From a virus (taxonomy: Duplodnaviria > Heunggongvirae > Uroviricota > Caudoviricetes), in IMG/VR virus record IMGVR_UViG_2687453563_000006, positions 1-42,570 of that record: 42,570 nucleotides of DNA; one strand, 5' to 3'. Of this stretch, positions 1 through 1,030 are shown piece by piece (positions within the stretch are counted from its first letter, which is position 1; each line of letters opens with the position of its first letter). The notes beneath the pieces were generated by a model. The model worked only from the letters and a program-made list of their open reading frames with translations, did not search any database and was not told the DNA's origin. A program made the translations under genes and the position numbers.

Positions 1-20
1 CACTGTTTATCCATACAGTT
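1..20 (+). promoter_or_regulatory. LexA (SOS) box-like site 1
   Basis: cactgtttatccatacagtt fits CTGT-N8-ACAG with AT-rich spacer, upstream of the dinI-like start. Confidence 0.55.
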
Positions 21-28
21 AAAAATAA

Positions 29-48
29 TACTGTATACAAACACAGTA
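29..48 (+). promoter_or_regulatory. LexA (SOS) box 2
   Basis: TACTGTATACAAACACAGTA is a near-consensus SOS box; ggaggg Shine-Dalgarno and ATG follow. Confidence 0.75.
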
Positions 49-61
49 TGGAGGGACTTTT

Positions 62-94
62 ATGCGTATTGAAATCTGCATAGCCAAAGAAAAA
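62..94 (+). pseudogene. dinI: dinI-like gene, 5' fragment (MRIEICIAKEK) truncated by IS1
   Basis: First 11 codons resemble DinI N-terminus (MRIEVTIAK...) from memory; SOS boxes upstream; reading frame runs into the IS1 end at 97. Confidence 0.5.
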
Positions 95-111
95 ATGGTA
101 ATGACTCCAAC

Positions 112-615
112 TTACTGATAGTGTTTTATGTTCAGATAATGCCCGATGACCTTGTCATGCAGCTCCACCGATTTTGAGAACGACAGTGACTTCCGTCCCA
201 GCCTTGCCAGATGTTGTCGCAGATTCAGGTTATGTCGCTCAATGCGCTGAGTGTAACGCTTGCTGATAACGTGCAGCTTTCCCTTCAGACGGGATTCATA
301 CAGCGGCCAGCCATCCGTCATCCATACCACGACCTCAAAGGCCGACAGCAGGCTCAGAAGACGCTCCAGTGTGGCCAGAGTGCGTTCACCGAAGACGTGC
401 GCCACAACCGTCCTCCGTATCCTGTCATACGCGTAAAACAGCCAGCGCTGACGTGATTTAGCACCGACATAGCCCCACTGTTCGTCCATTTCAGCGCAGA
501 CAATCACATCACTGCCCGGTTGTATGCGCGAGGTTACCGACTGCGGCCTGAGTTTTTTAAGTGACGTAAAACCGTGTTGAGGCCAACGCCCATAATGCGT
601 GCACTGGCGCGACAT
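112..615 (-). CDS. insB: IS1 InsB (transposase B' frame)
   Basis: 167 aa ORF with characteristic InsB sequence ([29 protein letters not shown]...). Confidence 0.9.
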
Positions 616-625
616 CCGACGCCAT

Positions 626-808
626 TCATGGCCATATCAATAATTTTCTGGTGTATACGGGCTGAGAGGCGGTGTAAGTGAACTGTAGCTGCCATGTTTT
701 ACGGCAGTGAGAGCAGAGATAACGCTGATGTCCGGCAGTACTTTTACCGTTACGCACCACGCCTTCAGTAGCAGAGCAGGAGGGACCACTGATGGAGATG
801 GAAGCCAC
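626..808 (-). pseudogene. insA: IS1 insA, truncated to 60 aa by a 1-nt frameshift after codon ASQP
   Basis: N-terminal 50 aa match canonical InsA as I recall it; after ASQP the frame reads [14 protein letters not shown] while the adjacent frame continues with the expected [15 protein letters not shown]... sequence. Confidence 0.7.
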
Positions 809-975
809 GGGAGCACCTCAAAAACACCATCATACACTAAATCAGTATGTTAGCAGCATTACCCCCACATTTTTTTGTTGCAATGCACACATAAAAAGAT
901 AACAATTGGTTACCCCTGTTACTATGTGAGCATATACAACTTGTTCAATTTCGCCATTTGGTTGCGATAGCCAAG

Positions 976-987
976 GGCGGTAGCGTA
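976..987 (+). promoter_or_regulatory. ops-like element (GGCGGTAGCGTA) within a JUMPstart-like sequence; putative RfaH recruitment site
   Basis: 11/12 match to the ops consensus GGCGGTAGCGTG as I recall it, preceded by CCAAGG, 44 bp upstream of the GT2 start codon. Confidence 0.55.
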
Positions 988-1030
988 GTATTTTACACAT
1001 AAGCAAAAAATTAATATATAAGCAAGTCAA

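Follow-up and report, generated by a model that had tools for sequence, protein, structure and literature searches.

The IS1 copy that lies between a truncated dinI-like gene and a glycosyltransferase cassette in this prophage reads as a hybrid of two different IS1 copies, a two-parent mosaic, and we consider it likely that two IS1 copies recombined homologously, in a RecA-type exchange, which best accounts for the lack of a target-site duplication around it. The window, by which we mean the whole 42,570-base stretch of DNA analysed here, is one SfII/SfV-like prophage integrated in dusA and starting just past its integrase. Missing target-site duplications have been ascribed to decay, to recombination between IS copies or to adjacent deletion, and recombination between IS copies is a standard cause of them (PMC11708052). 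The present case belongs to the class of recombination between IS copies. Loci retrieved for comparison are referred to below by their handles (L001, L002 and so on) where they have to be told apart.

The dinI-like stub and the prophage left end

The following features define the left end of the window and its integration site.

3–18, plus strand: LexA-box-like site 1, CTGTTTATCCATACAG (CTGT-N8-ACAG; identical in intact dinI loci)
31–46, plus strand: LexA-box-like site 2, CTGTATACAAACACAG (CTGT-N8-ACAG)
62–118, plus strand: fusion ORF, MRIEICIAKEK followed by MVMTPTY and a stop (dinI-like codons 1–11, a junction Met, six codons of the IS1 repeat, stop)
4186–4231, minus strand: 46-nt relic sharing its entire sequence with the 3' end of tRNA-Thr thrW and with the SfII attP core
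41027–41194, no strand assigned: dusA-derived attR, matching the dusA fragment at the prophage right end

The initial annotation had described two LexA boxes and a Shine–Dalgarno sequence ahead of an ORF that starts MRIEICIAKEK and is cut after 11 codons by the IS1 terminal repeat. We observed all of these elements: the two boxes, the sequence GGAGGG at 50–55, the ATG at 62 and, upon alignment to the intact dinI-like gene of E. coli UPEC 26-1, the truncation itself. The 20-mer at 29–48 agrees at 17 of 20 positions with TACTGTATATATATACAGTA, which we take to be the LexA consensus. The pattern CTGT-N8-ACAG occurs only twice in the entire 42,570 bases (0.48 occurrences expected by chance), and the presence of both copies near the promoter is what a putative LexA-controlled (SOS) promoter should display.

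Window positions 1–96 (or 97) are 100% identical to the int–dinI spacer plus the first 11–12 codons of a DinI-like gene that is intact (82 aa) in UPEC 26-1, and 13 E. coli genomes match positions 1–96 at 100%, the locus being annotated there as 'DinI-like family protein'. The base G97 is shared, as it is both the first base of IS1 and the G of dinI codon 12 (ATG). Across the breakpoint region the intact gene reads ...AAAGAAAAAATGACTAAAATG..., and past the breakpoint it continues as (G)ACTAAAATG, not as the cccacattt that is found on the far side of IS1. The Pfam DinI domain (PF06183, ∼63 residues) corresponds to residues 16–80 of the intact homologue (70.9 bits); the window has only residues 1–11/12, with no domain sequence left, and the 3' part of dinI is absent from the entire window. 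As the retained codons 1–11/12 end before the domain (16–80), the function of dinI would be lost, and what is left is a null stub, a gene remnant with nothing functional in it. Its promoter region, both boxes, the Shine–Dalgarno sequence and codons 1–11 are identical to those of prophage DinI-like genes that lie behind LexA boxes (the UPEC 26-1 dusA prophage and phage SKA5). Unlike these intact genes, it keeps only 11–12 of the 82 codons and its DinI domain is gone.

The gene order in UPEC 26-1 is dusA, integrase and the 82-aa DinI-like gene, and phage SKA5 has the same order. Window positions 1–96 are the sequence that immediately follows int in these dusA–int–dinI loci, so that the int gene itself is outside the window and the prophage left end (int–dinI) begins just before base 1. 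The truncated dinI' gene thus sits at its native prophage place, next to int. On the opposite side, the window closes with sequence that is also found at the right end of dusA-integrated prophages, and the chromosomal DUF2713 gene is part of this match. DusA-specific integrases and their islands have been described; such elements insert into dusA at its 5' end, so that int lies on the dusA side and a dusA-derived repeat opposite (PMC4482086). The window has the int-side sequence and the dusA repeat (41027–41194) of such a prophage. The native int–dinI left end together with the dusA attR at the right end indicates that the window is one dusA-integrated prophage.

The morphogenesis genes in the middle of the window have ∼97% DNA identity to those of the Shigella phages SfII, SfI, SfV and SfIV. 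As in these serotype-converting phages of S. flexneri, a glycan-modifying cassette lies between the attachment/integrase end and the tail-fibre genes. The Sf phages carry gtrABC beside attP and int, whereas the window has an ops-led pair of GT2 and HAD-like genes behind IS1 instead, and, unlike them, it is integrated in dusA with a different integrase followed by dinI. The 46-nt thrW-type attP core is still present (4186–4231), as in SfII, and ARAGORN predicted no complete tRNA there. A cassette module common to many relatives stops just before this relic, at 4176/4177. Remodelling has probably affected the accessory region, which extends from int to the tail-fibre genes.

A defective IS1 copy with two parents

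The IS1 element and its parts are as follows.

97–863, minus strand: IS1 of 767 bp, one base short of the canonical 768, with its two terminal repeats in place
626–808, minus strand: truncated insA' ORF, 60 aa; zinc ribbon kept, HTH lost
112–615, minus strand: intact insB reading frame, 167 aa
97–572, minus strand: X-type segment (X-type being an intact, widespread IS1 variant found in E. coli ATCC 8739 and 2021CK-01361, among others) with the insB-side repeat, the insB frame and the A6C motif
573–641, no strand assigned: candidate crossover interval of 69 bp, identical in both parental IS1 types (last X-specific site 572, first cassette-type site 642)
642–863, minus strand: cassette-linked remnant segment with the 5' part of insA carrying a 1-nt deletion, and the insA-side repeat with T848 and A852

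The ends of the element could be read directly, as GGTAATGACTCCAACTTACTGAT and ...ATCAGTATGTTAGCAGCATTACC, and the length and ends of 97–863 are those of the IS1 family (∼768 bp, ∼23-bp imperfect repeats, GGTRATG...). It aligns end to end with IS1A of K-12 (L007) at 90.5% and with other variants at 97–98%, and no second IS1 is found in the window. IS1 is expected to generate a direct repeat of 9 bp (8–11 bp) at its target. With the ends mapped to 97–863, the 9-bp flanks agaaaaaat (left) and cccacattt (right) agree at 3 of 9 positions, so no target-site duplication is present; the earlier reading that the flanks do not match and that the element did not simply insert here therefore stands.

A 1-nt indel in insA that would prevent the InsAB' fusion had also been reported, and we located it as one C missing from TACCGGG between 657 and 658, at a CC dinucleotide and not in a long homopolymer. 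The deletion splits insA into a 60-aa ORF and a C-terminal piece in another frame, and adding the missing base yields a 91-aa InsA. The A6C slippery motif TTAAAAAAC is intact (553–561, minus strand), and Pfam scores for Zn_ribbon_InsA and DDE_Tnp_IS1 are 70.7 and 249 bits, respectively. The InsAB' transposase is made from insA and insB' through a −1 frameshift at A6C, whereas the frame in which the 60-codon insA of the window terminates has no continuation into insB. Because of the 1-nt deletion, the copy is predicted to make neither InsA nor InsAB'; it is IS1 by descent but defective. The insA-proximal inverted repeat moreover has two substitutions, T848 and A852. The view that this copy is probably immobile is reasonable as far as autonomous movement is concerned, given the loss of InsA and InsAB' and these two changes in the insA-side repeat.

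Taken as a whole, the element has no match better than ∼97.8%, whereas its leftmost 479 bp are found at ≥99% identity in 299 records. We compared its two parts with the two candidate parental types. Positions 97–572 differ from X-type IS1 (L018, L019) at 3–4 sites in 476 bp and from the cassette-linked remnant at ∼14 informative sites (136, 151, 441, 451, 472, 493, 499, 505, 508, 529, 533, 564, 572...). The reverse is true of 573–863, which has 0 differences from the cassette-linked remnant of L015 and 1 from that of L002, against ∼20, including the indel, from the X-type. These informative sites (∼14 plus 20, ∼34 in all) fall into one clean two-block split with its sole switch between 572 and 642, and random ordering would give such a two-block partition with a probability of ∼1.4e-9. 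The X-type tract extends to the very end of the element (97–130, 0 differences). X-type IS1 is abundant, and both inspected copies (L018, L019) are annotated as intact programmed-frameshift transposases. Three differences from the X-type copies are private to the window (219, 289 and 469), so the exact X-type donor is not among the sampled copies.

A conserved cassette junction and its relatives

On the other side of IS1 lie the following features.

864–1030, plus strand: cassette leader, with a JUMPStart-like hairpin and ops at 958–986
1031–3821, plus strand: two-gene cassette (GT2-family glycosyltransferase, 1031–1876; 652-aa protein with an N-terminal HAD-like region, 1863–3821)
573–4389, no strand assigned: patch near-identical to the yecD-side prophage of E. 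coli WCHEC050613 (L015), with 1 mismatch (at 3779) and diverged flanks on both sides

The leader contains an exact ops element, GGCGGTAGCGT, at 976–986. JUMPstart leaders of RfaH-dependent operons are recognised by a covariance-model score that exceeds the gathering score, in a match that contains the ops element GGCGGTAGNNT; Rfam RF01707 gave 22.6 bits at 958–986, below the gathering score of 35 (E 0.12). The GT2 match of the first gene is weak (26.4 bits), and the N-terminal HAD-IA-like region of the 652-aa protein reached 30.4 bits with NCBIfam and a sub-threshold 20.3 bits with Pfam. The cassette has a GC content of 28–37% against 50–58% in the neighbouring phage genes. On these sequence features 'glycan-operon leader', as the initial annotation had called it, seems a fair label. 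Its proposal that a dinI locus was fused to this leader was right in that the stub lies beside a JUMPStart/ops-type leader; neither a distant locus nor a chromosomal operon is involved, as both belong to the accessory region of one prophage. A literature search on JUMPStart, prophage and glycosyltransferase cassettes returned nothing specific.

The full-length leader occurs in 7 of 5426 complete E. coli genomes, each time beside an IS1 remnant. Further cassette loci were obtained by an exact look-up of the glycosyltransferase protein (ten loci; in the assembly collection, 1465 index blocks contain this exact protein) and by the leader pattern (four metagenome contigs). No IS1-free copy of the leader was found: there was none in the GTDB representatives, and the four metagenome hits (4/4) and the seven E. 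coli genomes (7/7) all carry IS1. The cassette circulates among related SfII-like prophages with the same IS1 remnant always attached. Positions 131–3000 are 98.5–98.8% identical to six complete E. coli genomes, in which a prophage with a Mu-type tail ends in a truncated, frameshifted IS1 and, after it, genes for a family-A glycosyltransferase and a 'HAD family hydrolase'.

The junction at 863/864 and the leader are unbroken in L001–3, L008–17, L021–23, L026 and L028, that is, in at least 18 loci and in every other retrieved cassette copy that reaches it. This IS1/leader junction is, as judged from these relatives, old. In most cassette copies the IS1 remnant is cut at the position that corresponds to 131 of the window and is joined there to one and the same unrelated sequence, which indicates that the truncation was a single ancestral event. 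The insA deletion is common to L001–3, L010–15, L026 and L028; with at least 11 independently assembled relatives carrying it and L009 lacking it, it is inherited, and the possibility that it was an assembly error falls away.

The relatives also suggest an order for these changes. In the earlier-branching L009 the remnant is truncated, its 91-aa insA being intact and its repeat bases ordinary (A848 and G852); L001 and L013 have the frameshift; L002, L003, L010, L012 and L015 have the frameshift plus T848/A852. The order would then be truncation, frameshift, repeat mutations and finally the chimera. The window carries both derived states and is nearly identical to L015, and thus its right half descends from inside the truncated-remnant clade. 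Its arrangement is derived, the complete insB-side end and the dinI flank having been gained later. Divergence from L015, L002 and L012 climbs sharply after about 4464–4525.

At least three independent IS1 chimeras were observed at the cassette junction. In three finished genomes (L008, L016 and L017) the left part is of IS1A type up to a crossover at about 776–787, with the same cassette junction beyond it, and L023 is a chimera with yet another IS1 partner. In L003, L010 and L015 an IS1A-like patch is present at 187–268. A draft contig with the same tail-fibre-assembly protein (L026) has a T at 572 and stops at window position 565. We considered L026 as a sister that shares the chimera; as its contig ends there, it is not informative on this point.

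Origin of the junction and its meaning

The shared 863/864 junction and the single-switch mosaic together point to an exchange between IS1 copies as the source of the state without a duplication. We propose the following history. An intact X-type IS1 would have entered the LexA-regulated dinI-like gene by transposition, using the A/T-rich sequence AGAAAAAAT at codon 12 as its target. Comparison with the relatives shows that a separate, older remnant, with its insB end truncated and its insA frameshifted, was already fixed directly upstream of the JUMPStart/ops leader. A crossover of the two elements within 573–641 could then have produced one hybrid IS1, of which the mosaic is the visible outcome. 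From the first copy this hybrid would have its dinI flank, and from the second its cassette flank, along with the frameshift in insA and the altered repeat on the insA side; with flanks from two parents, it would be bordered by two unrelated 9-bp sequences. The outcome would be a dinI null stub, an IS1 without InsA or InsAB', and a cassette that retains its own leader.

Two geometries may be considered for the exchange. The two copies could have been in direct orientation in one prophage, the crossover deleting the intervening DNA; alternatively, a patch of ∼3.9 kb (573 to ∼4460) could have come from a second prophage resembling L015 through two crossovers, of which the one on the right fell close to the 3' end of the tail-fibre-assembly gene. 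The rise in divergence after ∼4464–4525 would fit the latter geometry, though tail-fibre genes are mosaic anyway. The left neighbour of the remnant, i.e. the sequence that flanks the truncated copies, is absent from the window.

We searched for the junction and its possible intermediates. None of 5426 complete E. coli genomes has the dinI/IS1 junction, and it is likewise missing from the GTDB species representatives and the JGI metagenome contigs (the last two searched with an exact or degenerate pattern), and by these searches the specific junction appears to be new. The best partial matches among the 5426 E. coli genomes (H8 and H9) have dinI and IS1A 1.4–2 kb apart. None of these 5426 genomes has a simple IS1 insertion at the same dinI site, and the plasmid collection returned generic IS1 matches only. 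No genome was found with an intermediate, neither dinI::IS1 between two copies of a 9-bp repeat nor an intact dinI together with the remnant-linked cassette in one dusA prophage, and the reciprocal recombination product was not found.

IS1-promoted adjacent deletions arise by intramolecular replicative transposition, the deletions of the gal region being classical examples, and they resemble the present case in their outcome: the IS is kept with one old flank and one new flank, and there is no duplication. Here the other end of the cassette-linked IS1 would have attacked dinI intramolecularly, with loss of the intervening DNA. IS1 is classically known for such deletions, which are among the accepted reasons for an absent duplication (PMC11708052), and both the complete terminal repeat abutting an A/T-rich target and the conserved right-hand junction are in line with it. 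It needs transposase acting on both ends, however; the window copy is transposase-defective (insA frameshift) and its other repeat has two substitutions, while the closest relatives, cut at position 131, lack the attacking end. The mosaic, which points to a RecA-type exchange, would demand an extra, earlier recombination with an X-type IS1 as well as transposition complemented in trans, and we regard this explanation as unlikely. The initial suggestion of an IS1-mediated deletion or rearrangement thus holds for a secondary rearrangement, but the mosaic and the shared 863/864 junction speak against a transposase-mediated deletion. An assembly chimera, in which two separate IS1 copies (one in dinI, one at the cassette) were joined through the 69-bp identical stretch and the DNA between them collapsed, is very unlikely in our view. 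The switch does sit in an identical stretch that a k-mer assembler could cross, draft relatives break within this IS1 (such as L026, with its contig end at 565), and the junction occurs in no other assembly searched; but assemblers usually break at such repeats and do not join them, the 42.5-kb element is a coherent prophage with its native left end and a matching dusA attR, and similar IS1 chimeras are found at the junction in the finished genomes L008, L016 and L017.

Gene conversion alone would require a cassette-type IS1 already joined to dinI, the 476 bp on its insB side being overwritten by X-type sequence with the flanks unexchanged. Patchy conversion is indeed seen in relatives (the IS1A-like 187–268 tract of L003, L010 and L015). 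This course leaves the missing duplication unexplained, so that a further event would be needed; the X-type tract reaches the very end of the element, and all close relatives of the right half are without that end. We judge it highly improbable. As a separate observation, a gene-conversion tract reaching the end of IS1 would yield an identical mosaic without any movement of flanks. A simple insertion whose 9-bp duplication has since decayed has nothing in its favour but the complete terminal repeats, and it is refuted by the poor agreement of the flanks (just 3 of 9), by the lack of the intact dinI continuation (G)ACTAAAATG... anywhere in the window and by the identity of the right flank as the conserved cassette leader. 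Microhomology-mediated joining through AATGACT, which is common to dinI and the IS1 end, was also considered and ruled out, because the terminal repeat at the junction is complete.

Recombination between two IS1 copies, the reading that we prefer, is a known and well-understood kind of rearrangement, and nothing here departs from known biology or would surprise a specialist in mobile elements. The element resembles hybrids formed by homologous recombination between IS copies, which has been recorded as deletions, inversions or segment swaps in E. coli evolution experiments and in Shigella genomes, in having unrelated flanks, no duplication, two parents and a single switch. It differs from the usual hybrids in that one parent was already a truncated, frameshifted remnant, and recombination restored an IS1 that looks complete and is non-autonomous.

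Left without its gene, the dinI promoter, both LexA boxes included, has the same orientation as the cassette; 900 bp separate it from the ops/JUMPStart leader downstream, and this interval has no predicted intrinsic terminator. A joint reading, speculative and in our opinion improbable, is that SOS-induced transcription might read through the antisense IS1 into the GT2 and HAD-like operon and that the IS1 remnant might serve as portable homology for hopping of the cassette. If the read-through were true, modification of surface glycans would be coupled to DNA damage or prophage induction; if the idea of portable homology were true, the cassette could move between prophages that hold any IS1. 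The case is also instructive: where a duplication is missing, a transposase-mediated deletion is often assumed, and here the polymorphisms inside the IS favour homologous exchange.

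Make-up and spread of the cassette

The region discussed here comprises the following two features.

864-4176: two-gene cassette led by an ops/JUMPStart element, encoding a GT2 glycosyltransferase and a 652-aa HAD-like protein; low GC, 28-37%
4186-4231, minus strand: thrW/attP-like putative relic of 46 nt, identical both to the SfII attP core and to the 3′ end of the tRNA-Thr gene thrW

In SfII-type phages gtrABC is found at the position that is held in the window by the GT2 and HAD-like cassette. The index of the assembly collection lists the exact GT protein in 1465 blocks, and at least five distinct settings, chromosomal or prophage, were observed for it. 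An IS1 remnant was joined to the cassette in every retrieved copy that reached the junction, and leader searches of E. coli complete genomes, GTDB representatives and metagenome contigs found no IS1-free copy. We also found no literature on this cassette.

The HAD-like gene occurs in two predicted forms. The 652-aa form shares 14 nt with the end of the GT gene (1863-1876 in the window, and also in the relatives L009, L011 and L013), while the 647-aa form starts 2 nt past the GT stop codon (L008, L010, L012, L014, L015 and others). Judged from these gene boundaries, the two forms are a start-region polymorphism.

The IS1 side of the cassette

In the window and its closest relatives, the 23-bp insA-proximal terminal repeat carries substitutions at 848 and 852, so that it reads ATCAGTATGTTAGCAG... 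as compared with ATCAGTAAGTTGGCAG... in other IS1 variants. These substitutions arose later than the insA frameshift, which is consistent with a dead element in decay.

The cassette leader has the same orientation as the orphaned promoter region with its LexA boxes, and no intrinsic-terminator-like site was predicted between the two (window 1-1100, plus strand). Read-through from this promoter region into the cassette is possible.

IS1-bracketed layouts were observed among the relatives. In L003 (E. coli ET846, NZ_CP100895.1; 7700-11400), an insertion of ∼4 kb interrupts the GT gene of the cassette; it contains a phosphoethanolamine transferase gene and is flanked by IS1 copies and an IS5. This insertion may be an IS1 composite element that carried a gene for LPS modification into a different glycan cassette. 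L008, L016 and L017 (about 9006-9065 and 15160-15930) have a 60-nt IS1 end fragment and a full IS1, an IS1A/cassette-type chimera, upstream of the cassette, and a second IS1 lies about 5 kb downstream of it. This arrangement, near an O-antigen-type ABC-transporter cluster, is composite-transposon-like in its sequence layout.

The thrW-type attP stretch

The 46-nt stretch has the cassette on one side and the tail-fibre-assembly gene on the other, although the prophage itself is integrated in dusA. The cassette module that many relatives share stops at 4176|4177, exactly 9 nt short of this stretch. The stretch looks like a relic attP left by a thrW-integrating ancestor, gtrABC having been lost.
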